This document shows positions 185 to 51,922 of a DNA stretch of 52,473 bases, piece by piece (position 1 is the first letter of the stretch; each line of letters starts with the position of its first letter). Location of the stretch: positions 1-52,473 of IMG/VR virus record IMGVR_UViG_3300045257_000172. The stretch is one strand, 5' to 3'. Below the pieces are notes generated by a model that was not told the DNA's origin, searched no databases, and was given only the letters and a program-made list of their open reading frames with translations. The position numbers were made by a program, and so were the translations under genes. Origin of the DNA: a virus. Lineage: Duplodnaviria; Caudoviricetes.

Positions 185-3100
185 TAGTATTTACAAACTG
201 CCTGTTTCACAACTGGACCCACGGTTCAGCTGCCTCTGGCGTGTCTAACATGCGGGCATGTATATGTGGGGATACCCACTACAACTCAGGGCGTGGTGGC
301 ATGGATAACTGTCTGGTTGATGGTTGCACGTTTGACGGAACGCTCACTAGTGACAGTGGCGAAGTAATCTACGCTTTCCCCAATATCAGGAACTCTTTTG
401 CAACCAAGATGGTCAACTACGGGCTTATCGGAAATGCACCGGGACACACAATGGAGGTTAGCGGATGCGATTTCGGGAATTACGTCAATCCATTTGATGG
501 AGGCGGCGATCACGGAAACCTGGTTGAGAGCCTGACTACTGGACCGTGCTTGGTTCACCACAACAAGTTGCACGACTTTAACGCTGGGGGAATTACGGTT
601 TTTCTAGCTGGAACTGCTAGCGGAACAACACAGATTTATAATAACCTCGTCTGGAATGTTGTGCCTGTTCCGTTTCAGTTCGATACCCGGACTAGCGGCC
701 CCCCGTGTGTTGCCAACATGTACAACAATACAGTGATTTATGGGGGGAACTTAACTACCACCACTGGCACTGGACCCTTCACTCTCACCGCCAAAAACAA
801 TCACTTGATTGGTTTAACTGGGTTGGGCCCTGCTTCCGGCACGAATAATCTTTTCCAGAGTTCAGCCGCAGCCACCGCCGCTGGTTACACTCTAAGCAAT
901 CTATATCAACCTACCAGCGGTTCTTCCCCCACGGTTGATGCTGGAACAAGTAGTGTAAATCCACCTGTCGCTGATGACATTATGGGGGTAAGCCGCCCAC
1001 AGGGGAACGGGTATGATATTGGGGCCTATGAACGGTTTACTGGGAGCGTATCACCCCCGGTCATTACCAGCTCCCTAAGTGCCTCAGGAACGGTTAACAC
1101 GGCTTTTAGCTACTCTGTCACTGCCAGCAACTCCCCGGTGTCCTACGGGGCTTCTCCGCTGCCCACGGGCCTATCTATAAACACGTCTAGTGGTGTAATA
1201 AGCGGTACACCGACCGGGTCAGGCGCAACCACCGTTGTTATCAGTGCTACTAACGCCGGGGGAACAGGGACAGCTAACCTCTCTTTAACCATTCAGTCCG
1301 GCACAGCAGCGCCTACCATCACCAGCCCGCTGACTGCTAACGGTACAATCAACGTGGCATTCAGTTACACTATTACCGGGAGTAACACTCCAATCAGTTA
1401 CGGAGCTTCGGGGTTGCCAGCAGGGCTATCGGTTAACACTGGTACTGGGGTTATCAGCGGTACGCCTACTACCGCTGCTACAACTAATGCCACGATCAGT
1501 GCTACCAACGGCACCGGTACAGGTTCGGCTACCCTCACCATAACAATCCGGTCAGCCCAACAGACTTTTCAGACTACGGTAACCAACACTGGTGAGACTT
1601 ATTTCATCAACGGTATCCGCACCCACGACCAGAACCCAATGGCTGGCACCCTCCCAAACATTCGAACGGTACAGGCCACATTTGATGACTCTGGGGGTAC
1701 GGTAAGTAACTGGAGTTATCCAGGTGGTGTAGCTTATTCCCCTACTCGTCAAACTAATGAGTTTGTAGCCGCGCTCCCGGCATGGAAAGCGAAGGGGGTG
1801 CTGGCTTGCACTCTCAACTTCCAGGGTGGGCAACCCAAGCCCTCCGTGATACCAAATAACAGCGGGTTTAACGCTGATGGTTCTATGAAAGGCCCATACC
1901 AAACCCGGATGGATCAGGCTATCCGGGGGCTGGACGCCAACGGGATGGTAGCAATCGTTGGGTACTTTTACTTTGGTCAGACTAGTGTGTTCGGAGGGAA
2001 CGAGACAGCGATTAAAGCTGCGGTGACCAATGCCACGAACTGGATCGTAACCCAGGGGTACACCAACGTAATCATCGAGATCGCCAACGAGATTGATACC
2101 GCAAGTTATCCGGCAATTATTCAACCGGGAAGGATCAACGAGCTTGTCTCAATCATTAGAGGGATTAAACCCGGTCTTAAGGTAAGTTGCAGTTTCGTGG
2201 GTGGCACTGTGCCAAGCCCGGCCATGGCAGTCCTGTTCGATTATATCTTGGTTCACGGGAACAACCAGACATCCAACTGGGTCACTAACACGATCAACAC
2301 TGTCCGTGGGTACAATTTAAGTAAACCCATCGTGGTAAATGAGGATTCGGCTACGATAGCTAACTTTGATGCTGCGGTAGCAGGCCATGCAAGCTGGGGG
2401 TTCCACCCGCCCTATGCTAACGATTACGTCACGGGTTTCCAAGGCCCACCGACTAACTGGAGTAACATTACTGAAACGGTTAAATCCTCGTTCTTTACCG
2501 AGGTAGCCAATTTCCAGTCACAGATCACGCCTCCTCCACCACCCCCGAATAATCCAGTTATACAGGTAGCACCTACCAGTCTGGACTTCGGGTTTGTACC
2601 AGTTGGTTCAACCCCGACCGATAAAACCTTTACCGTATCAAACACTGGGACTGGAACTTTAACTGGATCAGCCAGCGTCACTTCCCCGGTATTCTCGGTT
2701 GTTGGTACGGCTACTTACAGCCTTACCTCTGGGCAAACAGCTCAAATCACAATCCGGTACCGGCCAACCGTTAAAGCGAGTGACTCAACCAATGCCATAT
2801 TTACCGGAGCAGGAGGCTTGGTCAGGCAGGTGCTAGGGAAAGCCTACCCACTTCTTCCTGCCCTCCAGTTTAATCCTGACGATGGATTGGTGCTGTCCCC
2901 CTTCGTAATCAACTCCTCTACCCACACCGTTTCGCAGTCCCTAGAAATAGACGTACCCGGGAACGCTGGGCAGGTCAGGGCTGGGTTTACTGCTCCGACT
3001 ACAGGTGCATACACCATATCGGCGCTGGTCAATGCTCCCAATGATGCCAGTAATTCACTCTACATCGGGATAGATACCATCCCTACTGAACCAGCAAATG

Positions 3101-4488
3101 TCTGGGACATCGTAGCGTTTACTACCGGGTACAACCCCCGTGTTGCCTGCTGGCGTGGAACGGGCACCTTCGATAACCCGCAGTTTAACCCCAACACCTG
3201 GAACCTGAATGCGGGTCAAACGTATCAACTCATAATCTGCGGGCGTGAGGCGAACGTTGGGCTAGGGCAGATCACGATTAACCCTCCTGCAACTGCCCCC
3301 ACGATCCCTCCTCCACCCGCAGCTCCTACCACTCCTGTACCAGCCAATAACGCTACCGGGATTGGAGTTAACAGCGCTATTGCCTGGAGCGAGACCGACA
3401 CGGTGAGTGGGTACAATATTTTCCTGGGAACCGTTAATCCACCGCCCCAGGTGGCAAGTGGAGGACAGAACAAGTTCTATAACCCACCGTCCCAACTCCA
3501 GTATAACGCTCAGTACTTTGCCAAGGTTAATGCGTTCCTGAATTGGAGTAGCCAGGGGCAGAGCGGAACCGTTACGAGCCCTGATTTAGCCTGGAGCTTT
3601 ACCACTGCCCAGTTCATTCCCCCGCCCCCGCCGGCCCTGATAATCGGTTCCCTTACCGCTGTTCCAGATCACGGGAACGCACCTTTAACCACCCAGTTTA
3701 CGGTTGTCTTTAACGGTGGCACAGCACCTTATACCTACGATTGGGATTTTGGGGATGGGTCAACCCATGGCACCACGATCAATCCTAGCCACGTTTACAC
3801 TACGGCAGGCACTTTTACTGCCATGGTTACAATAAACGATTCTGGGGGCCAATCTGCTCACGCAACGGTCAGTGTGAGCACAACCGTAACTCCGCCACCC
3901 CCGACTCTCACTGTTTCAATTAACGCTAATCCAACCTCTGGGCGGGTGGGTGACACGGTTATATTCACTTCCACGGTCACCGGGGGAGCTGCCGGGACTA
4001 AGACTTACGCCTGGGATTTTGGGGATAGCGGTACTTCCACAGCCTCCAACCCGGCACACACTTATAATTCGGTTGGTAACTTCACTGCTAAACTCACTGT
4101 CACCGATAGTGGGAGTAACTCTGCTTCTGCTACCCAGATAATCACAATAGCTGTGTTCCCGCCGCAGGTGGCATGGTCAAGTCCAACTGATAACTCAACT
4201 TCGACCGCTCCGGCAACGTTCTCGCTAGGGGCAGTAGCTATAGCGAACGGCGGGGCTACTATCACCGGGGTATCGTTTTACCGGGGCGGTTCAACTCTTA
4301 TCCATGCAGCGACACTGGTGGCAGGAGTGTGGACGTATTCTTGGACTGGGGTAACGGCTGGGGATTACACTTTAACCGCAAAAGCCACCGATAGTTCGGC
4401 AGCAACCTCAACCTCGACCCCGATTATGGTCCATGTGCTAACCGCTGGCACCGTGCAGGTTCCACAGCTAATTTACGTTACCCCATGA
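1..4488 (+). CDS. 3' part of a giant (~1,599 aa) multidomain tail/adhesin protein: beta-helix, two He_PIG-like Ig repeats, GH5/clan-A-like TIM barrel, Ig/FN3-like modules, two PKD domains, C-terminal Ig
   Basis: Frame 1 is open from base 1, so the true start is at 51978 across the join. Motifs: G..YDIGAYE; two 'PVITS.L.A.GT.N.AFSY...LP.GLS.NT..GVISGTPT' repeats; IIEIANE and PIVVNED (clan-A acid/base and nucleophile pattern); two 'Y.WDFGD....T..NP.H.Y...G.FTA' PKD motifs. Confidence 0.85.
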   Translation, partial: GAASPRNQQIVIYDFTDWITFDNIEFTRFYWDITTNSYPVAIVQIGTGSTNAQNQGTNCDGIVFTNCLFHNWTHGSAASGVSNMRACICGDTHYNSGRGGMDNCLVDGCTFDGTLTSDSGEVIYAFPNIRNSFATKMVNYGLIGNAPGHTMEVSGCDFGNYVNPFDGGGDHGNLVESLTTGPCLVHHNKLHDFNAGGITVFLAGTASGTTQIYNNLVWNVVPVPFQFDTRTSGPPCVANMYNNTVIYGGNLTTTTGTGPFTLTAKNNHLIGLTGLGPASGTNNLFQSSAAATAAGYTLSNLYQPTSGSSPTVDAGTSSVNPPVADDIMGVSRPQGNGYDIGAYERFTGSVSPPVITSSLSASGTVNTAFSYSVTASNSPVSYGASPLPTGLSINTSSGVISGTPTGSGATTVVISATNAGGTGTANLSLTIQSGTAAPTITSPLTANGTINVAFSYTITGSNTPISYGASGLPAGLSVNTGTGVISGTPTTAATTNATISATNGTGTGSATLTITIRSAQQTFQTTVTNTGETYFINGIRTHDQNPMAGTLPNIRTVQATFDDSGGTVSNWSYPGGVAYSPTRQTNEFVAALPAWKAKGVLACTLNFQGGQPKPSVIPNNSGFNADGSMKGPYQTRMDQAIRGLDANGMVAIVGYFYFGQTSVFGGNETAIKAAVTNATNWIVTQGYTNVIIEIANEIDTASYPAIIQPGRINELVSIIRGIKPGLKVSCSFVGGTVPSPAMAVLFDYILVHGNNQTSNWVTNTINTVRGYNLSKPIVVNEDSATIANFDAAVAGHASWGFHPPYANDYVTGFQGPPTNWSNITETVKSSFFTEVANFQSQITPPPPPPNNPVIQVAPTSLDFGFVPVGSTPTDKTFTVSNTGTGTLTGSASVTSPVFSVVGTATYSLTSGQTAQITIRYRPTVKASDSTNAIFTGAGGLVRQVLGKAYPLLPALQFNPDDGLVLSPFVINSSTHTVSQSLEIDVPGNAGQVRAGFTAPTTGAYTISALVNAPNDASNSLYIGIDTIPTEPANVWDIVAFTTGYNPRVACWRGTGTFDNPQFNPNTWNLNAGQTYQLIICGREANVGLGQITINPPATAPTIPPPPAAPTTPVPANNATGIGVNSAIAWSETDTVSGYNIFLGTVNPPPQVASGGQNKFYNPPSQLQYNAQYFAKVNAFLNWSSQGQSGTVTSPDLAWSFTTAQFIPPPPPALIIGSLTAVPDHGNAPLTTQFTVVFNGGTAPYTYDWDFGDGSTHGTTINPSHVYTTAGTFTAMVTINDSGGQSAHATVSVSTTVTPPPPTLTVSINANPTSGRVGDTVIFTSTVTGGAAGTKTYAWDFGDSGTSTASNPAHTYNSVGNFTAKLTVTDSGSNSASATQIITIAVFPPQVAWSSPTDNSTSTAPATFSLGAVAIANGGATITGVSFYRGGSTLIHAATLVAGVWTYSWTGVTAGDYTLTAKATDSSAATSTSTPIMVHVLTAGTVQVPQLIYVTP

Positions 4489-5492
4489 GTGCTCAATCAG
4501 GTAGAGATGGTTTACTAGACGCGGAATTACAGTCGAATCTCGACGGGAAGGGCCACAAGATCCTCAACACCGATCTGAGTGATGCCACCAACACCTTTCC
4601 TCCAGCCACTCTTCCACTGATACCGCATACCACTGCGGCACTAGCCGGGGATGGAGCGGGGCAAGTGGTGGACACCAAGGTAACGCTCACCGCTCCGGCC
4701 ACTGGATCAACCCTGACCGTAGCTGATGGTAAAACCTTCACTGTCTCCAACACCTTAACCCTTGCCGGAACCGATACTTCCACGCTCAACGTTGGCACAG
4801 GCGGGACTTTAGGGACTGCTGCCTACACTCCTACCGGGAACTACGCAACCGCAGCGCAGGGGACCAAGGCGGACGCAGCAGGGGCCATTACGGGCCTGGT
4901 TAAATCCAATGGAAGCGCCACCTTTGCTGCTGCGGTAGCCAAGACTGACTACTGGGATGGTAGCGTGTTCTTGGCTGGGGGTAGTCATGCCAAGGGACTG
5001 GTTCCTGATCCGGGTGCAGGAGGAGGTACGACTAAGTACCTACGTGAAGATGGCATCTTCCAGGTTCCGCCAGCTTCCAGTGGAGTCACGATTGCGGTTA
5101 CAACCAATGTTATTAAGGGGGATGGTGCCGGGGGTGGAGTTGCTGCTACTCCCGGTACCGATTACTTGGTTCCCAGCACGGCGTTAACCCGGCTCACAGC
5201 GGCTACAGTTGTCCTCTCCGGTGCCACCCCGGCAATTAACTGGGCATCTTCCACCGGGTTTAGTTGGACGCTTTCAGCCAATTCTACTCCTACTTTCAGT
5301 AATTCAACTGATAACTGGGATATTACGATTGCTGTTACTAACGGTGCTTCGTGGACCCTGACTTGGCCAACCGTACAATGGCAGGGGGCAGCAGGACAAC
5401 CTACCCAGAGCGTGAGTGGGAAAACAGATTTCTGGGGGTTTAAGAAAGTCGGATCAATCATTTACGGAGCCGTGAAACAGAACATGGGATGA
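4485..5492 (+). CDS. Tail fibre-like structural protein
   Basis: Gly/Ala/Thr-rich, with 'KGLVPDPGAG..TKYLREDG' and 'TLTVADGKT.TVSNTLTLAGTD' fibre-type motifs. ATGA-coupled to the upstream gene. Confidence 0.65.
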   Translation: MSAQSGRDGLLDAELQSNLDGKGHKILNTDLSDATNTFPPATLPLIPHTTAALAGDGAGQVVDTKVTLTAPATGSTLTVADGKTFTVSNTLTLAGTDTSTLNVGTGGTLGTAAYTPTGNYATAAQGTKADAAGAITGLVKSNGSATFAAAVAKTDYWDGSVFLAGGSHAKGLVPDPGAGGGTTKYLREDGIFQVPPASSGVTIAVTTNVIKGDGAGGGVAATPGTDYLVPSTALTRLTAATVVLSGATPAINWASSTGFSWTLSANSTPTFSNSTDNWDITIAVTNGASWTLTWPTVQWQGAAGQPTQSVSGKTDFWGFKKVGSIIYGAVKQNMG

Positions 5493-10237: not shown

Positions 10238-11035
10238 ATGAGTTTCACGCCTTTAACTGATGTTTTTGGAGAAAAACCCACCGTCCCACCGTGGAAGAAC
10301 ATCAGTTTAGCCCAGCAGCAGCTCGCGTCCCTGCAAGGGAATATCGCGGCAATGCCCGATATAACCAAGTTGGGGGATTTGTACCAGAGCTATCTGACCG
10401 ACCAGATGAACACCCTGCTCCCCGGGTACTCAGACTTGCTAAAGAGTGGAGCTGCAAGCGCACAGCAGGAGTTGGATTTGAGTAAATCGCTTCTGAGCGG
10501 ACAGATACCACAGGACGTCCAGGACCTAGTGCAGCGTAATTCGGCTTATGGGGCTATGCAGGGTGGGTTTGCTGGGAGCCAGATGAGCGGGAATTTGACC
10601 GCTAGGAACTTGGGGTTAACCAGCCTTGACCTGATGGGGCAAGGGGCAAATATGGCAGCCCAGGGTGGCAATGCGGCCCAGCGTTGGGCGGGTCTGGCCA
10701 GTAACCAGGTAATGAACCCTGGAGCGTTCTATACTAACCCCCAGCAGATGTTCCAGGACACCATGCAGAACCAGACGATGAAATGGAACAGGGATATGAT
10801 GGCGGCTAATGTGGCCGCAGCCCCAGACCCGGCAGCCAAGGGGATTAGTGATACCATTATTAACCTGATTGGAGCTTACTTAGGGAAAGGTGGCGGGGGT
10901 GGGGGTACTGCTGCCAATAGCTATGCACCTGCTACCGCAAGTGGGAGCATGAACTATAACTTTGGCGGGGACCAGCAAGACCCGTACAACTACGCTAATT
11001 ACGGTAGCCTCGGGCTAGGAGCAGGAGGTGCATAA
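10238..11035 (+). CDS. Internal virion (ejection/pilot) protein
   Basis: SD GAGGTG upstream. Gln/Ala/Gly/Met-rich helical sequence ('GGFAGSQM....TARNLGLTSLDL'). Confidence 0.6.
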   Translation: MSFTPLTDVFGEKPTVPPWKNISLAQQQLASLQGNIAAMPDITKLGDLYQSYLTDQMNTLLPGYSDLLKSGAASAQQELDLSKSLLSGQIPQDVQDLVQRNSAYGAMQGGFAGSQMSGNLTARNLGLTSLDLMGQGANMAAQGGNAAQRWAGLASNQVMNPGAFYTNPQQMFQDTMQNQTMKWNRDMMAANVAAAPDPAAKGISDTIINLIGAYLGKGGGGGGTAANSYAPATASGSMNYNFGGDQQDPYNYANYGSLGLGAGGA

Positions 11036-11949
11036 TGCCTGAGCTAGTTAAACCTGAGTTACCAGAGTTTTATAGCCCTGGGAGAGTGTTCCTGTCAGCC
11101 TTTGCTACCTACGCTGCCATCAATGCCAGAAGGACACAATTAGAGAACCAGCTTCAACATCTCCAGTTGCAGAACGAGGCTATGCAGTACCGGCAACAGC
11201 AGAACGAAGCTAGCTTTGGGTTGCGGCAACAGGCCATGGAAAATCAGTATAACCTTGGAATACAAAAGATTGGTATTGATAGGGATAGACTAGCAAATCA
11301 GACCGAGGCTACGATCCTACAACGTAGACAAGATGCGATAACCGATGGGCGAGTAACCGAGTTCCAGAGCAAGGCTGCCCAAATCTCGGATAAGATTGGT
11401 ACCCAAGGTTTTGATACTTCATGGAATATTTTGAAAAGCGAGTACTCAGACATCCTGGGTGAACCAGGGGCAGCATCGACCAAAGTATCAATCGACAGTA
11501 GGCATTCACGAGCAGTGGGCGAGTCGGTTAAAGCCAAGGTTAACTTACAAAAGGACTACAAAGATTCAGTAGGTGCGTTGGGGGTAAGTGACCCGAATAT
11601 GAAACCGGGGATGGTGGACTACTTCTTTAACAACCCGAACATCTGGTACACCAGGGGCGGTAAGGCAGCGATTGATTACGATTCCTCAGGGCGACCAGTG
11701 CCGGAAGGGGCCAAAACCAAGGCAGGATCATTTACCATTGGGAAGAATGATTATGATACGATGTTGGCCAAGCGCAAAGCAGCTTTCCCTTCAAGTCCAT
11801 CTGATACCCCTGCAATCCAAGCGTTACCCAACGGCATGAAATCGGGGACTACCGCAACATCGCAATACAAGGTTGGGGGGCAATACGGGAATTTGATTTA
11901 CAAAGGTGGGGACGTAAACGACCAAAACAGTTGGCAACCGGCTCAATGA
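11035..11949 (+). CDS. Internal virion protein
   Basis: SD AGGAGGTG and TAATG coupling. Gln-rich coiled coil with a C-terminal 'Y.GGD.NDQNSW' motif. Confidence 0.6.
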   Translation: MPELVKPELPEFYSPGRVFLSAFATYAAINARRTQLENQLQHLQLQNEAMQYRQQQNEASFGLRQQAMENQYNLGIQKIGIDRDRLANQTEATILQRRQDAITDGRVTEFQSKAAQISDKIGTQGFDTSWNILKSEYSDILGEPGAASTKVSIDSRHSRAVGESVKAKVNLQKDYKDSVGALGVSDPNMKPGMVDYFFNNPNIWYTRGGKAAIDYDSSGRPVPEGAKTKAGSFTIGKNDYDTMLAKRKAAFPSSPSDTPAIQALPNGMKSGTTATSQYKVGGQYGNLIYKGGDVNDQNSWQPAQ

Positions 11950-11950
11950 A

Positions 11951-13795
11951 ATGGCTGACTTTGTTCCGCCTCCGCCTGAAAGTTATGTGGATACCGGGTT
12001 CACCCCGCCACCGTTAGATAGCTTCGTCCCGCCTCATCCCAGCACCTACGTCCCATCTCCTACCCCCGAGACAGACAAAGCGGTAGCGGACACGCTCGCA
12101 GTTCCCGAAGGATCACCTGAGTACCAAGCCCGAATGCGGCACGACTTGGGGCAGGATGTTGTGTTGCCACCAGACATTGCTAACCGGCCTGATGTGGTGC
12201 CTGCCAGCACCCAGCAAGCGTACAGACAGGGTGGGATTCTAGGAGCAGCGTTTTACCCCCGTAAAGCCACTTCCCTGCTTGAAACAGCCTCGGGGCGGCA
12301 ACTGCCTGAAGCTAAATCAGCACCGGAACAGATTGCCAAGGGGCTAGCAACGTCCCCCTTAGCACTTGCAGATTTTATGACTACCCCAGAAGGGGTTGGA
12401 TACATCATGGCCGGGGCAACTGGACCTGCCATCCGTGCAGTCATTGCCGGTAAGTTCGGACTTGAAGGAGCCACTGGTACAATTAAGGCACTTCGGAGCG
12501 GGGATTACCACGGAGCAACTCAGTCTGCTTTGGTAACCTTGGGGTCAGCTTTAGGGCTAAAACACGATTTAGCCGCTAAACCCTCTGTAACCGCTCCTGA
12601 GGGCGAACCCGCTACCCTGACACCCCCGGAGCAACAAACGCAGCCACAGGCCCCTGTACAGCTCCCCAAGGGTGTTACAATAGGGGAACCTCAACGCCGA
12701 GGGCATCAGTTTGGCTTAAGTGCGGTTGATGAATCAGGGGAGATGGTTGGGAGACTTAGCTGGACTGAACAACAGGGGCGTCCCAAGGTAGAAATGGTCG
12801 ATGTCAAAACTGATATGCAACGGCAGGGAATAGGGTTAGCCCTGCTCAACAAACTTCAGGAACAGTACCCAGGAATAGAAATTATCCATGACCCGGTAAC
12901 GGCCAAGGGCAAGGGGTTGGTTGAGAAGTTCAAGACACAACAAGCAGGAGGTGATATTAATGCCCAGCAGCCAAGTGATGCACAAGTTCAAGCAGGGACA
13001 ACTCCACTCGGGGAGCAAGCACGGCCCCAGGGTGAAATCCCGGGCACAGGCAGTAGCGATAATGTTATCGGAGAAGCGGCAGGCACACAGCAAATCGTGG
13101 ATGAGCCAGCACCGCAAGAGGATGTAGCTACCGAACCTGCCGGAGTAAGTGGTGCAGAGACGCCACCTCCGGCAGAACCCCCTGTCAGTGGCGTATCGGC
13201 TGGAGCTTTTGAGCGGACCTACGGAGCGGGTGAGATACCTACTGGGCAGAGCATGTCCCCGGAAGATATATTCGCCCAAGGCAAAGCTGATCTTGCAGCC
13301 GGGGTTGACCCCTATTCATTCGCTGTCAGAGCAAGGACCGGGGATGTGTCCCCGCGGGAACTTGGGCAACTAGCCGCAGAGCACGACCGGCTAGTGACTG
13401 AAGCCGCAGGACGGGAAGGTACCCCAGGGTACGAAGAAGCCTACCAGCGAGCCAAAGATTTCGCCCAGAACATGCTTAAACCTGCCGGAACCAAATGGCA
13501 TCAGGTGGGCATGGGGTTACAGATTGAGGCTCCGGTTGATTTCTCTAACCTGACTGGGTTCAGAGCAGCACTAGAAAAACGTATGGGGCGAGACATGACC
13601 CCAGAGGAAGCACCAGCATTCCAGAAAGTGGCTAATGATGTGGCTAAGGCTAAAGGTGAAGCTCAGGCTGCTGGTCGAGAAGCAGCTAATGGAGTTCAGA
13701 AACGCTTTGCCAGGGTGAAGGATATAACTTTTGAGGATGCAGCAAAACAAATCCACGATGCAATCACGGAGGCAGCTAAACCCTGTAACCTATAA
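11951..13795 (+). CDS. Large internal virion protein with an embedded GNAT acetyltransferase domain
   Basis: Pro-rich N-terminus; 'V.MVDV..DMQRQGIGLALL' acetyl-CoA-binding motif (Q/RxxGxG) near 12790-12850. Confidence 0.65.
   Translation: MADFVPPPPESYVDTGFTPPPLDSFVPPHPSTYVPSPTPETDKAVADTLAVPEGSPEYQARMRHDLGQDVVLPPDIANRPDVVPASTQQAYRQGGILGAAFYPRKATSLLETASGRQLPEAKSAPEQIAKGLATSPLALADFMTTPEGVGYIMAGATGPAIRAVIAGKFGLEGATGTIKALRSGDYHGATQSALVTLGSALGLKHDLAAKPSVTAPEGEPATLTPPEQQTQPQAPVQLPKGVTIGEPQRRGHQFGLSAVDESGEMVGRLSWTEQQGRPKVEMVDVKTDMQRQGIGLALLNKLQEQYPGIEIIHDPVTAKGKGLVEKFKTQQAGGDINAQQPSDAQVQAGTTPLGEQARPQGEIPGTGSSDNVIGEAAGTQQIVDEPAPQEDVATEPAGVSGAETPPPAEPPVSGVSAGAFERTYGAGEIPTGQSMSPEDIFAQGKADLAAGVDPYSFAVRARTGDVSPRELGQLAAEHDRLVTEAAGREGTPGYEEAYQRAKDFAQNMLKPAGTKWHQVGMGLQIEAPVDFSNLTGFRAALEKRMGRDMTPEEAPAFQKVANDVAKAKGEAQAAGREAANGVQKRFARVKDITFEDAAKQIHDAITEAAKPCNL
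12960..13127 (+). CDS. Nested small basic protein, DUF6496-like (55 aa), in a different frame from its host gene
   Basis: SD AGGAGGTG (12946-12953) before ATG 12960. MPSSQVMHKFKQGQLHSGSKHGPRVKSRAQAVAIMLSEKR fits the recalled DUF6496 pattern VMHEFK.G.LHSG....VKSR.QA.AI.LSE. Confidence 0.7.
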   Translation: MPSSQVMHKFKQGQLHSGSKHGPRVKSRAQAVAIMLSEKRQAHSKSWMSQHRKRM

Positions 13796-15360
13796 TGGCA
13801 GCACCCTGCGGACACGAATACGAATCGGAAGCTCGTGATAAGATTGAGATTAACCCGATGGTAGCTAAAGCCTTCTGGAACGAAGCCAAGGCTCACTTTG
13901 ATACCGGGAAGGATTTCCAGGAGACAGTAAAAACCATGGCTGAGAAGAGCGGGCTACAGGAAGCTACCGTAGCCCGAGTACTCACCGCCGATAAACGACT
14001 CAAAGCTCTCACCAACGACATGTGGCTAAAGCGGGCAAAGTACGGTGATATCACCCGTGCAGCGCATCAGTTGGTAGATCAGGCTGATACCCCTAAATGG
14101 GCACAGAACGCCCGGGGGCTATGGGATGCCAGCCGAAGAATTGCCACCCTTGGGCATGGTGGGGTGTTCCCGTTTACCCACATGCGTAACTTGCCCCTAC
14201 GAGGGGTTGAGGAAGCTAAGATATTCGCGGAGACAGTTAAACGTGCCTATAGCTATGCTACACCTAAGGCAGGGAGAGCACGCTGGGCCGAAGACATGGC
14301 AACGATGCAGTTGGACCCTGAGTACGCCAATGCTCGTAGATTGGGGTTGGACATTGAACCTGGGTCTGAACCTGTAGGGATACTTTCAAGTGGAGCCAGG
14401 GGATGGGGGCGTAGGGGGTTTGATGCTCTTAAACCCTCCCGACTAGAACTATTCAAGCAGTGGTCCAAGGAGTTGCCTCAGGACATGCGGGACGAACAGA
14501 GCGGAAGGATGCTAGCACGGGAGATAAATTACGCTACCGGGTCAATCGGTAAAACCGGGGCAGGGTTTGCCCGGGTGACTAGCCCAGTGATGTTTGCGCC
14601 CAAACTATGGTTTGCTAAACGAATGGAGGCTTTCCAACCTCTGCGTTATCTGGCTAACGCTGGGAGACTGACAGCCGGGGAACGGATGGTAGCCAATAAA
14701 GCACTCAAAAGCTGGGCTAAGATTGCGGTAGCTACAGGTGGGGTGCTGGCTGCCAATGATGCTTTTAACAAGTACGTGTTGAAGAACGATAAACGAGTCA
14801 ACTTCACGGATTTCACTAAGCCTGGTACCCTGTGGAGGATGAACCTTGGGGGCATGATCGTTCCACTATCTCCCATGGCAGAAGTGATCCGCACCCCAGT
14901 AGCCTTCGTTGGAGCACTGATGGCCACAAAACGTGATCTGCGGGGTGAGGCACCGCTTACCAGTGCCGGGAGATTAGTACTGAAGGATTTCTTGAACGCT
15001 CTCCACCCGTCCATAACCGCTGGGGTAGAACTTATCTCGGGGCGTGAAGCATACGGTACCCCGGGGCATCTGCGGAGGCTGCCGTTCCCAGGGGTAGCAC
15101 AGATGGTACGGGGAGAGGAACCCGAGAAAGAGCCACCTTTAACACTTGGGGAATACGCAGCGGAGAAGGGACCAATCCCGCTGGCTGCTGGTACCCGGGA
15201 GTTCGTTCAGGCATTGCAGGATGAGGGGTTAAGTGCCACCGATGCCGATACGTGGGTAAAATCTCTACTCCATAGTGCTCTATCGGGCGGGGCTGGAATC
15301 CACACCTTTCAAGATTCATCTAAACCCAGCGGTATAAAACGTGTCCGACCTATCCACTAA
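13795..15360 (+). CDS. Internal virion protein (resembles the C-terminal part of large ejection proteins)
   Basis: TAATG-coupled; helical and basic; 'A..IN..TG' and 'FAP....R' motifs. Confidence 0.55.
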   Translation: MAAPCGHEYESEARDKIEINPMVAKAFWNEAKAHFDTGKDFQETVKTMAEKSGLQEATVARVLTADKRLKALTNDMWLKRAKYGDITRAAHQLVDQADTPKWAQNARGLWDASRRIATLGHGGVFPFTHMRNLPLRGVEEAKIFAETVKRAYSYATPKAGRARWAEDMATMQLDPEYANARRLGLDIEPGSEPVGILSSGARGWGRRGFDALKPSRLELFKQWSKELPQDMRDEQSGRMLAREINYATGSIGKTGAGFARVTSPVMFAPKLWFAKRMEAFQPLRYLANAGRLTAGERMVANKALKSWAKIAVATGGVLAANDAFNKYVLKNDKRVNFTDFTKPGTLWRMNLGGMIVPLSPMAEVIRTPVAFVGALMATKRDLRGEAPLTSAGRLVLKDFLNALHPSITAGVELISGREAYGTPGHLRRLPFPGVAQMVRGEEPEKEPPLTLGEYAAEKGPIPLAAGTREFVQALQDEGLSATDADTWVKSLLHSALSGGAGIHTFQDSSKPSGIKRVRPIH

Positions 15361-43021: not shown

Positions 43022-43029
43022 GGAGTTTG

Positions 43030-43629
43030 ATGCACCAACGAACAGGCGAGTCTAACGAGGATTACCGAATCAGGTGTAATATCTATCTCGCTGGTTGGCG
43101 TGTTAGGAATCCCGAGAAGCAGGCTGCGATAAACCGTAGGAGCATCGAGAAGAATTGGGATAAGGTTCAGGCTTCTAAAAAGAAGCGCAGGGAAGAAAAG
43201 AAGGAAGAGATTTCCGCCTATCAATCTCAATACTGGCAGGACAACAAGGTTGAGTTGGGAAAATATCGAAGGGATTGGGCGAGGGAAAAGTTTAAGACTG
43301 ATATTGGGTTTAGAATCCTGACCAATCTTCGGCAGCGGTTAAAGTCAGCTATCAAGCGGAAACACCAACGCAAGGCACCTAAAACAACCGAACTGATTGG
43401 GTGCTCTGCACAATTCTTGAAGGGATATTTGGAGGCGAAGTTTGAACCTTGGATGTCGTGGGCGAACTACGGTGAATGGGAAATCGACCATATCATTCCG
43501 TGTTCAAAGTTCGATTTAACCGATGCTCGCCAACAGCTTGTGTGTTTTCATTACACGAATTTACAACCTCTCCGAAAGAGGGAAAATCAGTCGAAAGGGA
43601 ACAAGATTATCCAATTCAAGGCGGCTTGA
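43030..43629 (+). CDS. Free-standing HNH homing-type endonuclease
   Basis: 'LIGCS...LK.YLE..F...MSW.NYG.WEIDHIIP...F.......CFHYTNLQPL...EN.SK.NK'. Confidence 0.85.
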   Translation: MHQRTGESNEDYRIRCNIYLAGWRVRNPEKQAAINRRSIEKNWDKVQASKKKRREEKKEEISAYQSQYWQDNKVELGKYRRDWAREKFKTDIGFRILTNLRQRLKSAIKRKHQRKAPKTTELIGCSAQFLKGYLEAKFEPWMSWANYGEWEIDHIIPCSKFDLTDARQQLVCFHYTNLQPLRKRENQSKGNKIIQFKAA

Positions 43630-43645: not shown

Positions 43646-43762
43646 ATGCGCGAAGTTGAACAGGAAATCATCGGGATACTAATGGCGATTCGTGACGGGG
43701 TGGATGTGAAAAACAACTGGAGCCGTCTAATCAACCTTTGGTATCAGAGGGGGTCAGCATGA
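43646..43762 (+). CDS. 38-aa micro-ORF homologous to the N-terminus of the next gene
   Basis: MREVEQEIIGILMAIRDG vs MKWSDLTIIGLLTQIRDG; ATGA-coupled. Confidence 0.6.
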   Translation: MREVEQEIIGILMAIRDGVDVKNNWSRLINLWYQRGSA

Positions 43763-45219
43763 AGTGGAGCGACCTTACGATTATTGGTCTGCTGACGCAG
43801 ATCAGGGATGGTAGCGGCGGAGGAGGTGGTGGAGCACCAACTGGTCCAGCCGGAGGCGATCTAGGGGGCACGTATCCAAACCCTACCGTCCTCAGTCTAT
43901 CCGATGTCACAACCGGTACGCTTCTAGGCGCTAACGGCGGCACCGGTATCGCCAACACCGGCAAGACGTTGACCCTGGGCGGCAGCTACACCATCAACGG
44001 GACGAGCGGGATAACTCTTGATCTTGGGACTACGGGCGGGTCTGTCTTGTATTCTGGTGGTGCGCTAGGCACACCGACATCCGGTGTCGCCACTAACTTG
44101 ACCGGAACTGCCCCGGGCTTAACTGCTGGAAACGTTACAACCAATGCCAATCTAGCAGGACCAATTACGTCAAGCGGCAACGTAACCTCGATAGCTTCTC
44201 AAACTGGTACCGGGACTAAGTTTGTTGTTGATACGGGTCCTACGCTTACTGAGGCAACCAAAAGCACTACTGCAACATGGGGAACTGGCAATGCCAATCT
44301 TTACGGCTTAATCCTAAACCGTCCAACTGGTTCTTCCATGGATTACGCCCATGGAATTGAGCTTCGATATAATGCCACCGAACTTTGGGACTTTGGTCTA
44401 TCGGCTGAACATCAAGATTTTTACATATTCGATCATGCGGCGAGTAGCGGTGACGTATTCCGTATTTCCCCGGGTGGGGAGACAGCTATCGGAAAAGGTA
44501 TAGGGCAACCGCTCGGGCAATTAGCTAGATTGGTGGTTACGCGGGCATCTGGCGATACTTACGCGATCAAATCGCAGGGAACTTTTGCAGTCACTAACAC
44601 TGCGGCTAACGCGATAATTGCCACGTTCGACGAAGCCACCATGGGCGTTGGGATAGGCGTTACAAGTCCCGCTTCGCAGCTTCATGTTAAAAGCACAACG
44701 GGAAGCGTGAATGGATTGGTTGAAACTACGGCTGCGGGTGCGGCAACCTGGAACACTAAGCGACCAGCCAATACTGGGTATAATGGTCTTGGGCTGTTTA
44801 CCGGAGCAACTCAGGGCTGGACCATAGGACAGCGAGCAGGTGATAGCGACGTTCATATTTACGATGAGGTAAATTCTAAAGATCAGTTCAAAATTGTTCA
44901 GAATACTGGAGCGGCAACATTACTTGGCACTCTCTCTGTTGGCGGAACAGTAACCACCACGGCTATAGGGGGAACTTTAGCTGTAAAGTCCGGCACTAAT
45001 GCCAAAGCCGGAACATTCACGCTTTCCAGCGGCACAGCTACGGTCAGTAACACGAGCGTCACCGCCAACAGCGTAGTTTGTTGCACGGTTAAAACTTCTT
45101 CTGGCACACTTGGAACCGGTTCACCCGAGATTGTCATTACTGCTAGCACAGGGTTTACCGCTACCGGGATTGCGACCGATAATTCAACTTACAACTTCGT
45201 TATCTTGGAAGTGAATTGA
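43759..45219 (+). CDS. Tail fibre protein
   Basis: 'PTGPAGGDLGGTYPNP', 'NGGTG', 'GVGIG.TSP..QLHV' fibre motifs; start at ATG 43759. Confidence 0.75.
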   Translation: MKWSDLTIIGLLTQIRDGSGGGGGGAPTGPAGGDLGGTYPNPTVLSLSDVTTGTLLGANGGTGIANTGKTLTLGGSYTINGTSGITLDLGTTGGSVLYSGGALGTPTSGVATNLTGTAPGLTAGNVTTNANLAGPITSSGNVTSIASQTGTGTKFVVDTGPTLTEATKSTTATWGTGNANLYGLILNRPTGSSMDYAHGIELRYNATELWDFGLSAEHQDFYIFDHAASSGDVFRISPGGETAIGKGIGQPLGQLARLVVTRASGDTYAIKSQGTFAVTNTAANAIIATFDEATMGVGIGVTSPASQLHVKSTTGSVNGLVETTAAGAATWNTKRPANTGYNGLGLFTGATQGWTIGQRAGDSDVHIYDEVNSKDQFKIVQNTGAATLLGTLSVGGTVTTTAIGGTLAVKSGTNAKAGTFTLSSGTATVSNTSVTANSVVCCTVKTSSGTLGTGSPEIVITASTGFTATGIATDNSTYNFVILEVN

Positions 45220-49246: not shown

Positions 49247-51922
49247 ATGTCACAGCCAATAGATACCACGGTCACCCTTGAGGATCAGTTTGCCGTAGTT
49301 GACCCGATTTCATCGGCCCCACCCGGGTCAGATATTGAGGCGTACGTTGAAGAGGGGGTGGTACAGCTTCCTTTAGGTGGACAGGTGGTGACGGTCACCT
49401 TCCTTACCCCCAAGGTATCACCCGATTACCAGTTCGATGTGCGGGACATCTACAACATGGTGGACGCAACCCCGCTCGTCATTGATTGTATCCTAACCAA
49501 CTTCACTGTTACCGGGTTTGAGATCACACTCAGTGCTTCACCGGACACCGGAAACTACTATTTCAGGTGGAAGGTCCGTATCCCGACTGCAATCCAATCA
49601 GGGATAACCATTACCGCTCAGGTAGCAGGGATAGCGGGCGGATCGGTGCAGGAAGTGTTTGCTACCGGGAATGATGGGGTTGACCTCACTGTTGGTGGTG
49701 ACGCTACCAAGTTACCCAATGTTATTGCTCATCTAATTGATGGCGGAATACCGCTCGCCAAGCTGGCTGAAACAGTCGTTACCGGACCGGTGTTAACCCC
49801 GACTGGGGCACAGACCGTTACCAACAAACTGCTGGATGGGAACAATAATACCTTTCAGAACATCGGGTTAGCGTCCCTGATTGGGGACGGGATTATTGCC
49901 CAGAACCTTACTGACCCAAATAATGACCAGGGAATTATATGGGATAACGGTACTAAGTTATTCCGGTTCGCTGGTTCCCCGACTAACAGGGGGCTGGCTA
50001 AGGATGTTTACATTTCGACTCGGGGCGACGGCAATGGGGTAGGCACGTTAGACGATCCATTTGATGGCAGCACATCGGTATTGTTTGATGCGATCATGGC
50101 CGACAACACAAAGACTCCGGTCAACACCAATATCTATCTGTGTGCCGGAACCTTTTTAACTAAAGGTTTTACTGTCAGGACCGGGTGGAAGTTTCACCTG
50201 ACTCCACAAACCACTCTAAAGCTGGATGTTTTTACTGCTGGCGATGCGGCTGCTTTGGGTGCTCCCAAGATTGTTTCCATGTTTGGGGGAACGAATAACA
50301 CGCTAGTTCAGGATGTTCTTATCGAGGGCGGAATTTGGGACTTGAACATGCAGAATCAAACCCAAGCCCTGTGCCCTGCTGCTATTCAGGTGGTAGCCGA
50401 TGGGTTCACCGCCAGGAACATGAAGGTGATTAACTTCGGTAACACCAGTCCGACTAATGCCGAATGTTTCGTCCTTGGGGTATTTAGTAACGGTGCCAGG
50501 GACGGTATAATTCATAAACGCGGAGTGCTTTGGGATAATATCGAGATAACGCAACCCGCAAGCGGTGTTACCAATGTTGCCACGCTCAGTTTGACTAACA
50601 CAAACGGCGGACAAGCCGTAGTTAATGAAGCCGCCTTGAGTAGCGGATGGTTCGAAGGTGTGACGATTCGCAACTGTTACATTCACGATATAACCTTCAG
50701 TGATGCCGTGGCGGTAGCGTGTATAAATCTTGGGGGCTGGGTGAAGGGATTCCATGGGCACAATAACCGCTTCGCTCGTATCACCGGGAATAATGCCCGG
50801 TACGGTTATTATCTTGATACTGGATCAGTTCAGGACGTGAAGATCGAGGACGGTCAGGCCGATACTATAATGTCTGCGGTCAACCTTAATAGCGGCACAG
50901 GCTGGACCCAGAACAATATCAGCATCAAAAAACAAATGGTCGTGAGTTCCAATTTTATTCCCATTGCCGTCAACAGCCAGACTGGAACAACTTCGAATGT
51001 TTACTTCGAATCCAACACCATTATTGCCCCCGGAGGTTCGCCTGCGACAGGGATAGCTGCGGTTGGTATAACCAACTCCAACTTCCTCAACAACACGATT
51101 GATAGTAGTTCGGCTAACGCGATCTTTATAAGTGGCGGCAATGTAAGTCAAAGGTTTAACAACCGGCAGCTTGATGGCACACCGGTAAGCGGAGAAACAG
51201 GCCTGGGTGATTTGATCCAAGTCCAGACCACCTCCGTGACCACTGGCACTGTTGTCATGCTCGCTAATAAATCTGTCCTTAGAATCACTGCTGCATTGAC
51301 TGGTGCGTTACAGATAACGTTACCTCTCGCATCGTCTATCCCCGCTGGCAATTCAATCACCATTCTTGACCCAGGTGGGTTTTCATCAGACGTAAACGTT
51401 TTATTTGTAGCTCGGTCGGGGAGCGATACTATAAATGGTAGTACATCACCTATTATCGCACTCATCGGACAAGGTTCCCAGGAGCTTATTTCCGATGGGG
51501 TGTCTAAGTGGACGTTTGGCACCAGTTATATTGTAAGTCCTGCAAATCTTTATCTGGAGGGCGGTAATGCAACCGTGATGCGTACGGCTGGTACTGACCG
51601 ATGGTATGTTAATAGTAGCGGTCATGTCATAACCGTTGTCGATAACGCGTACAACTTAGGGGAGTCTGCTCACCGGTTTAAGGACGCCTTTTTTGGCGGG
51701 AACGTTAACGCCGGGGGTCATATTTTGGCTGAAGGAGCCAATGTTGTTCTTGGCACTTCTACCGGAAGTCAGATTGCTACGGTAGGCGGAGCATCGGGGC
51801 AGAAATTGGCGGTTTGGGGTAAAACTCCAATCGTTCAACCAGTGCTGGCAACAGGGGCCGGTCATACGGCGGACGACATAATCACCGTTCTTCAAAATAT
51901 TGGATGGGTTAGGCAAAGCTAA
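49247..51922 (+). CDS. Tailspike with a right-handed beta-helix (putative depolymerase)
   Basis: 'VYIS.R.DG.G.GTLDDPFD', parallel beta-helix repeats, fibre-type C-terminal modules. Confidence 0.75.
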   Translation: MSQPIDTTVTLEDQFAVVDPISSAPPGSDIEAYVEEGVVQLPLGGQVVTVTFLTPKVSPDYQFDVRDIYNMVDATPLVIDCILTNFTVTGFEITLSASPDTGNYYFRWKVRIPTAIQSGITITAQVAGIAGGSVQEVFATGNDGVDLTVGGDATKLPNVIAHLIDGGIPLAKLAETVVTGPVLTPTGAQTVTNKLLDGNNNTFQNIGLASLIGDGIIAQNLTDPNNDQGIIWDNGTKLFRFAGSPTNRGLAKDVYISTRGDGNGVGTLDDPFDGSTSVLFDAIMADNTKTPVNTNIYLCAGTFLTKGFTVRTGWKFHLTPQTTLKLDVFTAGDAAALGAPKIVSMFGGTNNTLVQDVLIEGGIWDLNMQNQTQALCPAAIQVVADGFTARNMKVINFGNTSPTNAECFVLGVFSNGARDGIIHKRGVLWDNIEITQPASGVTNVATLSLTNTNGGQAVVNEAALSSGWFEGVTIRNCYIHDITFSDAVAVACINLGGWVKGFHGHNNRFARITGNNARYGYYLDTGSVQDVKIEDGQADTIMSAVNLNSGTGWTQNNISIKKQMVVSSNFIPIAVNSQTGTTSNVYFESNTIIAPGGSPATGIAAVGITNSNFLNNTIDSSSANAIFISGGNVSQRFNNRQLDGTPVSGETGLGDLIQVQTTSVTTGTVVMLANKSVLRITAALTGALQITLPLASSIPAGNSITILDPGGFSSDVNVLFVARSGSDTINGSTSPIIALIGQGSQELISDGVSKWTFGTSYIVSPANLYLEGGNATVMRTAGTDRWYVNSSGHVITVVDNAYNLGESAHRFKDAFFGGNVNAGGHILAEGANVVLGTSTGSQIATVGGASGQKLAVWGKTPIVQPVLATGAGHTADDIITVLQNIGWVRQS

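Follow-up and report, generated by a model that had tools for sequence, protein, structure and literature searches.

Complete small genes lying out of frame within a larger gene of the same strand are known from phages, as in Rz/Rz1 of lambda and the embedded genes of phiX174. In the usual model of overprinting, as given in the portions of the literature considered here, the embedded frame is the newcomer. Polyvalent proteins, as far as the sections of PMC5512222 considered here describe them, are large mosaic proteins with disparate enzymatic domains, whose genes lie with virion genes and for which packaging and injection have been proposed. Here we analysed the IMG/VR record IMGVR_UViG_3300045257_000172, a Caudoviricetes genome with an estimated completeness of 97%, over the whole record of 52,473 nucleotides (nt), hereafter the window. 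The window harbours an open reading frame (ORF) for a mosaic protein of 614 amino acids (aa) at 11951..13795 on the plus strand, hereafter the host ORF, and inside it a 55-aa ORF predicted to encode a basic protein of the DUF6496 family. Overall, the locus is very likely best explained by one DNA segment encoding two proteins on the same strand, an older small gene having been overprinted by a linker of the larger protein.

The nested gene is located at 12960..13127 on the plus strand, with its stop codon at 13125-13127. As (12960-11951) mod 3 equals 1, the small ORF lies in the +1 frame of the host ORF, which encloses it wholly. It is preceded by the Shine-Dalgarno (SD) sequence AGGAGGTGA (12946..12954, plus strand), which reads Ala-Gly-Gly-Asp in the host frame; within it, AGGAGGTG occupies 12946-12953 and is followed by a gap of six bases (12954-12959) and then by ATG 12960. 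The SD, the start codon and the enclosed 55-aa ORF in another frame of the same strand, with which the initial annotation had begun, are seen directly. The host-frame reading of the same piece, hereafter the cassette, comprises residues 333-392 (12947..13126, plus strand), a linker rich in Gln, Gly, Pro, Glu and Thr that is overprinted on the small gene. A complete embedded ORF with its own SD and its own start was found at the window, and again at two further viral loci, L006 and L085.

The assignment to DUF6496 made in the initial annotation was borne out by a Pfam scan. PF20106 (DUF6496) matches the 55-aa product with 42.7 bits (E-value 7.4e-11), the curated gathering cut-off being 24, and residues 5-45 of the product align with positions 12-53 of the 58 positions of the profile. 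A search of 5.8 billion clustered proteins gave 887 candidates, of which 884 are small homologues at E<=0.001, and the alignment of the window protein with 20 small homologues contains 23 invariant columns. The closest homologues begin with the same residues as the window product, and the same N-terminus is present in the library proteins P0032, P0037, P0099, and P0112; therefore ATG 12960, and not the upstream TTG 12921, corresponds to the start of the family. Judged by its sequence, the nested ORF is a bona fide member of DUF6496. The AlphaFold model of the protein runs from a helix through a short hairpin into a long helix, with a mean predicted local distance difference test score (pLDDT) of 82.6. 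By count, the protein contains 12 Lys/Arg residues and one Glu, and it is this charge that may point to a DNA-binding protein. With PHROGs, the 55-aa product gave only a marginal match, to phrog_2423 of unknown function (E-value 0.078). Structure searches returned only uncharacterised members of the DUF6496 family from BFVD, and unnamed viral clusters from the ESM Atlas, at 0.82. The BFVD neighbours, at 45-56% identity, include proteins of a Marseillevirus and a Mimivirus record, both of them giant-virus metagenome bins, so DUF6496 is not confined to tailed phages and bacteria.

Scanning IMG/VR with the alignment of the small protein yielded at least 600 matching stretches, from which the best 80 loci were retained. 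In 79 of these 80 viral loci the DUF6496 ORF is free-standing or forms an N-terminal in-frame domain, in agreement with the earlier statement that genes of this family normally stand alone; L006 is the only one with a nested ORF. Locus L006 encodes a 56-aa DUF6496 protein (4001-4171) inside a 1352-aa ORF. A second scan of IMG/VR, with twelve host-frame cassette peptides as queries, provided the third example at the DNA level, L085, where a 60-aa DUF6496 ORF (5002-5184) lies inside a 1731-aa ORF. Both loci present the same relative frame as the window. The nested copy is the only PF20106 match in each record, with 41.3 bits in a six-frame search of the window, 41.7 bits in L006, and 35.9 bits in L085. 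The host proteins of L006 and L085 have only the cassette in common with the window host.

At the protein level, a profile of the host-frame cassette built from the window and L006 gave 26 matches at E<=0.001 among 1.84 billion representative proteins. A codon-choice dynamic programme was used to determine whether any codons for the observed host protein could encode the DUF6496 core in the +1 frame, the resulting scores being upper bounds on compatibility and not observed codons. Twenty of the 25 new proteins can encode the full DUF6496 core in the +1 frame, with scores of 111-131 (z-scores 7.3-9.7), against a background mean of about -45 (standard deviation about 18) and second-best positions that score at most 30. 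The homologues P0003 (128.7) and P0004 (123.8) are also compatible with the full core in this back-translation. Furthermore, Asp/Asn/Tyr-Ala is present five codons upstream of the core in all 20 proteins checked, which spells ATG in the +1 frame. The DNA of P0001-P0006 was not found in viral, metagenome and genome contigs or in the phage collection, so frame conservation in these closest homologues was tested by back-translation only. Since the same double-coding piece recurs in about 20 other large phage proteins, we consider it likely that the window carries a real and recurrent nested gene on the same strand. The proposal that disordered linkers hide small genes dropped by annotation pipelines is upheld by these proteins and by L006, where the host protein is catalogued in the protein library (P0127). 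None of the nested products of the three DNA loci occurs in a collection of 15 billion proteins, which for L006 fits a small gene dropped by gene callers.

Some candidates from these searches were rejected. Four matches of the cassette profile (P0140, P0147, P0148, and P0149) are repeat proteins and were regarded as false positives, and P0143, a 72-aa fragment, was too short to score. Locus L073 was rejected as a nested case because it belongs to a GC-rich contig where the next gene begins 4 nt before the DUF6496 stop, and L049 because the first start codon of the spanning frame is downstream of the domain. In L015:2764-2928, the DUF6496 match is split over two frames (profile positions 1-29 and 31-55), which suggests that this copy is frameshifted or that its sequence contains an error.

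The start signals of the nested gene were compared, across all six frames of the whole record, with those of every ATG that opens a run of 50 or more codons without a stop (462 in total). Three of these ATGs, at 10238, 11035, and 12960, possess an SD match of at least 7 nt, the longest being that of 12960 with 9 nt; 10238 and 11035 are the starts of two genes upstream of the host ORF. Among 5000 random positions, a 7-nt SD match was present at 0.26%, and none was longer; the start at 12960 thus exceeds what chance would give. The phage itself rarely uses the SD, with matches of at least 6 nt in four out of 67 crudely called genes (8852, 10238, 11035, and 41765). No 4-nt SD match was present at 44 of the 67 crude gene starts, and many gene starts in the window overlap the preceding stop, suggesting translational coupling. 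An SD-like run precedes the nested ATG in all three DNA loci despite the differing host-frame residues over it: AAGGAGGTGA in L085 (Lys-Glu-Val-Thr) and GGGGGTG in L006 (Lys-Gly-Gly-Val). RNA folding around the start of the three loci revealed no extra structure relative to shuffles (z-scores +0.88, +1.17, and +1.19). Promoter and terminator sites were no more numerous in the scan than in shuffles, and therefore no internal transcription signal is claimed.

In other phages, free-standing DUF6496 genes are found among genes for head formation and packaging. In L020, the gene is placed after portal-type and protease-like genes and before the genes of an endonuclease VII and a major head protein, and in L016 it is downstream of the large terminase gene. 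DUF6496 is also the N-terminal domain of in-frame proteins of 237-538 aa (L026:4001-4714, L036:3143-4657, L055:3482-5098, L062:3491-4756, L082:2385-3473, and L074:3800-4724). The fusions of L055, L062, and L082 are encoded just upstream of genes for proteins of about 330-360 aa, two of which match phrog_12985, of unknown function. For the fusion proteins and their neighbours, PHROGs gave no family, or only families of unknown function. The position of free-standing copies and fusions in head and packaging modules suggests that the small protein is virion-associated. These fusions are also relevant to a different expression route, a programmed +1 frameshift from the host frame that would give a fusion of the host N-terminal domain with DUF6496, ending at 13127. 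Frameshifting is used by phage structural genes, and the six loci named above show that DUF6496 can form part of a larger in-frame protein. However, the domain is N-terminal and not C-terminal in these natural fusions, and the conserved SD and ATG yield the normal N-terminus of the family. No slippery motif shared by the three nested loci was noticed upstream of the ATG by inspection by eye, without a formal search. We regard such a frameshift as highly improbable.

The host frame contains no stop codon between 11951 and 13795, so a ribosome starting at 11951 must pass through the cassette. The N-terminal part of the host protein is 88% identical to P0001, and its C-terminal part of about 200 residues is 50-62% identical to P0002-P0006; the two halves have different sets of homologues. 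In the predicted model of the 614-aa protein, the pLDDT is below 50 over residues 312-420, and residues 332-415 are without secondary structure. This disordered stretch is situated between a strand-helix unit (residues 241-305; four strands and a helix, pLDDT about 82) and a confident helical C-terminal domain. The latter is conserved in the alignments (residues about 414-614; 13190..13792, plus strand), reaches a pLDDT of about 75-90 in most ten-residue blocks of residues 440-610, and carries a conserved Cys two residues before the end.

These features of the host protein could also be read as those of two genes flanking a free-standing DUF6496 gene, with the frame between them left open by chance or by an assembly error. 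The lack of predicted structure over the cassette and the different homologues of the two halves would agree with such an arrangement, as would the finding that a host-like frame is open by chance in three out of 27 free-standing DUF6496 genes. The other 24 genes contain stops in that frame, so its openness in every nested case is not automatic. Against two separate genes stands, besides the uninterrupted host frame itself, a Logan contig (run X1, depth 61.8) that agrees base for base with window positions 11900-13850 (0 differences, 0 gaps); run X1 probably represents the same data as the window, and hence this agreement argues only against an assembler-specific indel. On other contigs, continuous proteins were called across the cassette in 19 cases of 304-2153 aa, as well as in P0003 and P0004; these two proteins and the window host continue in frame from the cassette into the same C-terminal domain. 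It is very unlikely that the 614-aa ORF is not one gene.

The initial annotation had placed a linker rich in Gln, Gly, Pro, and Glu just after a GNAT domain. The linker stands, being free of structure with low pLDDT in the model, whereas the GNAT domain falls below the Pfam cut-offs. The GNAT-like segment (host residues about 251-310; 12701..12880, plus strand), which is visible in the model, scored 18.4 bits with PF13673 Acetyltransf_10, 17.9 bits with PF00583 Acetyltransf_1, and 17.2 bits with PF13508 Acetyltransf_7, the gathering cut-offs being 23.6, 20.7, and 27, respectively; only a piece of about 60 residues matches. The acetyltransferase PHROG 3810 matches the host protein at an E-value of 3.9e-4.

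The cassette-bearing proteins are mosaic, and in many pairs only the cassette aligns. Subsets of them share other modules, including a stretch immediately before the cassette as well as several C-terminal blocks. Three of the six relatives scanned contain Pfam domains, namely Glucosaminidase (P0128), Pyr_redox_2 (P0133), and HATPase_c_3 (P0150), and the other three gave no Pfam match. The L006 host has a partial match to the PHROG "DarB-like antirestriction" (E-value 4.5e-13), and the product of the gene that precedes the L006 host gene has what we take to be a tail-fibre chaperone-type motif. The window host probably acts as a "polyvalent-like" protein, internal to the virion or injected. Near the N-terminus, the short motif Thr-Pro-Glu/His-Thr-Asp-Lys/Gln-Ala (window residues about 35-45) recurs in P0132, P0133, P0136, P0144, P0146, P0005, and P0006, and a Cys 2-5 residues before the C-terminus recurs in the same otherwise mosaic proteins. 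The motif and the near-terminal Cys could be targeting or processing signals.

To determine which frame is under selection, the 35-codon core of the three nested genes was compared pairwise, together with 27 free-standing genes (351 free-free pairs). The nested pairs present 8-10 synonymous and 5-7 non-synonymous codon differences in the DUF6496 frame, and 0-3 synonymous and 12-14 non-synonymous differences in the host frame. Codons for the same residue differ at a fraction of 0.29-0.33 in the nested pairs versus a mean of 0.55 in the free-free pairs, 8 of the 351 being as low. For DUF6496, the searches gave 884 small homologues and no fewer than 600 viral stretches, against 26 proteins out of 1.84 billion for the host-frame peptide. 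The sequence comparison thus indicates that the small gene is the older, constrained frame and that the host frame is the younger, drifting one. The earlier suggestion that the large protein had absorbed or overprinted an older small gene is supported by this substitution pattern as regards the age of the small gene and its overprinting, but not as regards absorption as the order of events. Gene fusion and insertion of a cassette into a linker are both possible.

Several observations weigh against a functional, recurrent nested gene. DNA is available for three nested loci, and the other 22 cases are upper bounds of compatibility derived from protein sequence, not observed codons. The L085 copy has a lower score (35.9 bits) and departs from the family at otherwise invariant positions, and the SD of L006 is weaker than that of the window. 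The low synonymous divergence of the nested copies fits a double constraint but also recent shared ancestry. In the protein tree (60 columns), the three nested copies fall in one sub-group of 21 rows, but do not form one clade. The tree needs two changes for nesting, 13 of 500 label shuffles do as well, and a starred branch groups L006 with free-standing genes. As the tree does not unite the nested copies, it does not support one mobile cassette; the nested copies may go back to a single origin with later exchange of the module, or to two separate nesting events. Foldseek against the PDB found no fold match for the small-protein model at E<=0.001, NCBIfam had no name for the nested proteins, and a full-text literature search for "DUF6496" found no paper. 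PHROGs and Pfam gave no family match for the genes neighbouring the window host, so the term "ejection protein" is a putative one, drawn from the domains of the relatives and the gene position.

Part of these observations would also suit a silent relic, that is, a DUF6496 gene swallowed by fusion or insertion which is no longer translated and is intact because of its recency. DNA identity between the nested copies is 81-83%, as might result from a recent common ancestor, and the L085 copy has the lower score and the departures at conserved positions mentioned above. Nevertheless, the ORF, the ATG, and the SD-like run are intact in three out of three DNA loci with otherwise unrelated host genes. 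The 22 further proteins remain compatible with the full-length core, with the ATG kept in every one of the 20 checked. Between the nested copies, the small frame tends to change synonymously and the host frame non-synonymously, the reverse of what a relic within a functional gene would show. In none of the three phage records was a second copy of the family present. A silent relic is, on this evidence, improbable.

The preferred explanation, two proteins from one DNA segment, would operate as follows. The long frame 11951-13795 would be translated into the 614-aa mosaic protein, of which residues of about 333-392 would form an unstructured linker between the N-terminal part and the helical C-terminal domain. 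An independent ribosome start at the strong SD and ATG (12946-12962), one base out of frame, would give the 55-aa basic DUF6496 protein. The linker reading would tolerate the constraint of the small gene because a linker needs no fold. In this phage, the family would be represented by the nested gene alone, whereas other phages have it as a free-standing gene in their head or packaging module, and the double-coding piece would act as a module common to many otherwise unrelated large mosaic phage proteins. From the start signals, the small protein is predicted to be translated independently; it may be co-expressed late with the host protein and may have a virion-associated, nucleic-acid-binding role.

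A further reading, which we propose only tentatively, is that the DUF6496 gene and the linker constitute a portable double-coding module swapped between genes of giant injected (polyvalent) proteins. The small protein would then be a dedicated partner of whichever giant protein carries it, and might serve packaging as an adaptor or chaperone, or be injected along with it to bind DNA ends or nucleic acids. If this were true, nesting would ensure that the two proteins are inherited and expressed together, and linkers of large virion proteins would systematically hide conserved small genes missed by gene callers.

A different conserved host-frame peptide of about 35 residues, the "type 2" cassette, is present at the equivalent site in P0001, P0002, P0005, and P0006. 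Its first residues are Asp/Asn-Ala, preceded by Gly-Gly or Gly-Glu; as in the proteins above, this pair spells ATG in the +1 frame. Back-translation into that frame accommodates only a stretch of 11 residues from the DUF6496 core (z-score about 4), and the type 2 cassette was left out of the count of nested cases. Neither peptide queries nor a degenerate DNA pattern found the DNA of the type 2 cassette. P0004 and P0006 have the same flanks on both sides (85% identical over the region), and thus the two cassette types look like alternative modules. The type 2 cassette may hold another nested small gene, distinct from the first, or one that has decayed.

The host ORF is placed in a block of same-strand genes of unknown family. 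Elsewhere in the window, the product of 241-4488 (1415 aa) has Ig-like domains, PKD and He_PIG among them, and its ORF is open to the first base of the record; this protein is probably an adhesin or fibre. The window also possesses genes for an endonuclease VII-like protein (43027-43629), a protein with a polysaccharide-deacetylase-like C-terminus (43738-45219), and a protein with a weak tail-spike-like match (49247-51922). Portal, terminase, and capsid genes were not recognised with PHROGs in the ten window proteins searched.

Compared with the PF20106 family, the window protein has the same length (55 aa), N-terminus, conserved core, and basic tail, and its score is above the cut-off. The difference concerns the arrangement and not the protein family, as members are usually free-standing and the copies of the window, L006, and L085 are wholly inside a larger ORF of the same strand. 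Placing DUF6496 alongside phage head modules and putative injected proteins gives this family a concrete association, and indicates where its function can be sought. In the literature on overlapping genes and internal virion proteins, as far as it was covered, nothing comparable was present among the matches listed; in PMC5512222, "overlapping" and "linker" do not occur and "reading frame" occurs once. The cassette-bearing relatives resemble the polyvalent proteins described in that part of PMC5512222 in carrying glucosaminidase, pyridine-nucleotide oxidoreductase, and HATPase domains, to which the window host adds a GNAT-like piece. Unlike those proteins, the window host has one weak, sub-threshold enzymatic domain, and it is a putative packaged and injected protein only. 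What appears to be new is the polarity, the small gene being old and the linker over it young, together with the repeated occurrence in giant proteins that are otherwise unrelated and the family concerned. Gene callers would systematically overlook a conserved small gene of this kind when it is enclosed in a large mosaic phage protein, the cassette being present in about 20 protein clusters.

As in Rz/Rz1 and the embedded genes of phiX174, the small gene of the window is complete, carries a ribosome-binding site of its own, and is read one base out of phase (+1) with the larger same-strand gene around it. Unlike in those systems, the double-coding piece is common to many unrelated host genes. 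In contrast to usual overprinting, the embedded gene comes from an old and widespread family and the host frame appears young and disordered. The locus would therefore provide a clean and testable case of the reverse of usual overprinting, in which the embedded gene is ancient and the host frame is the newcomer.

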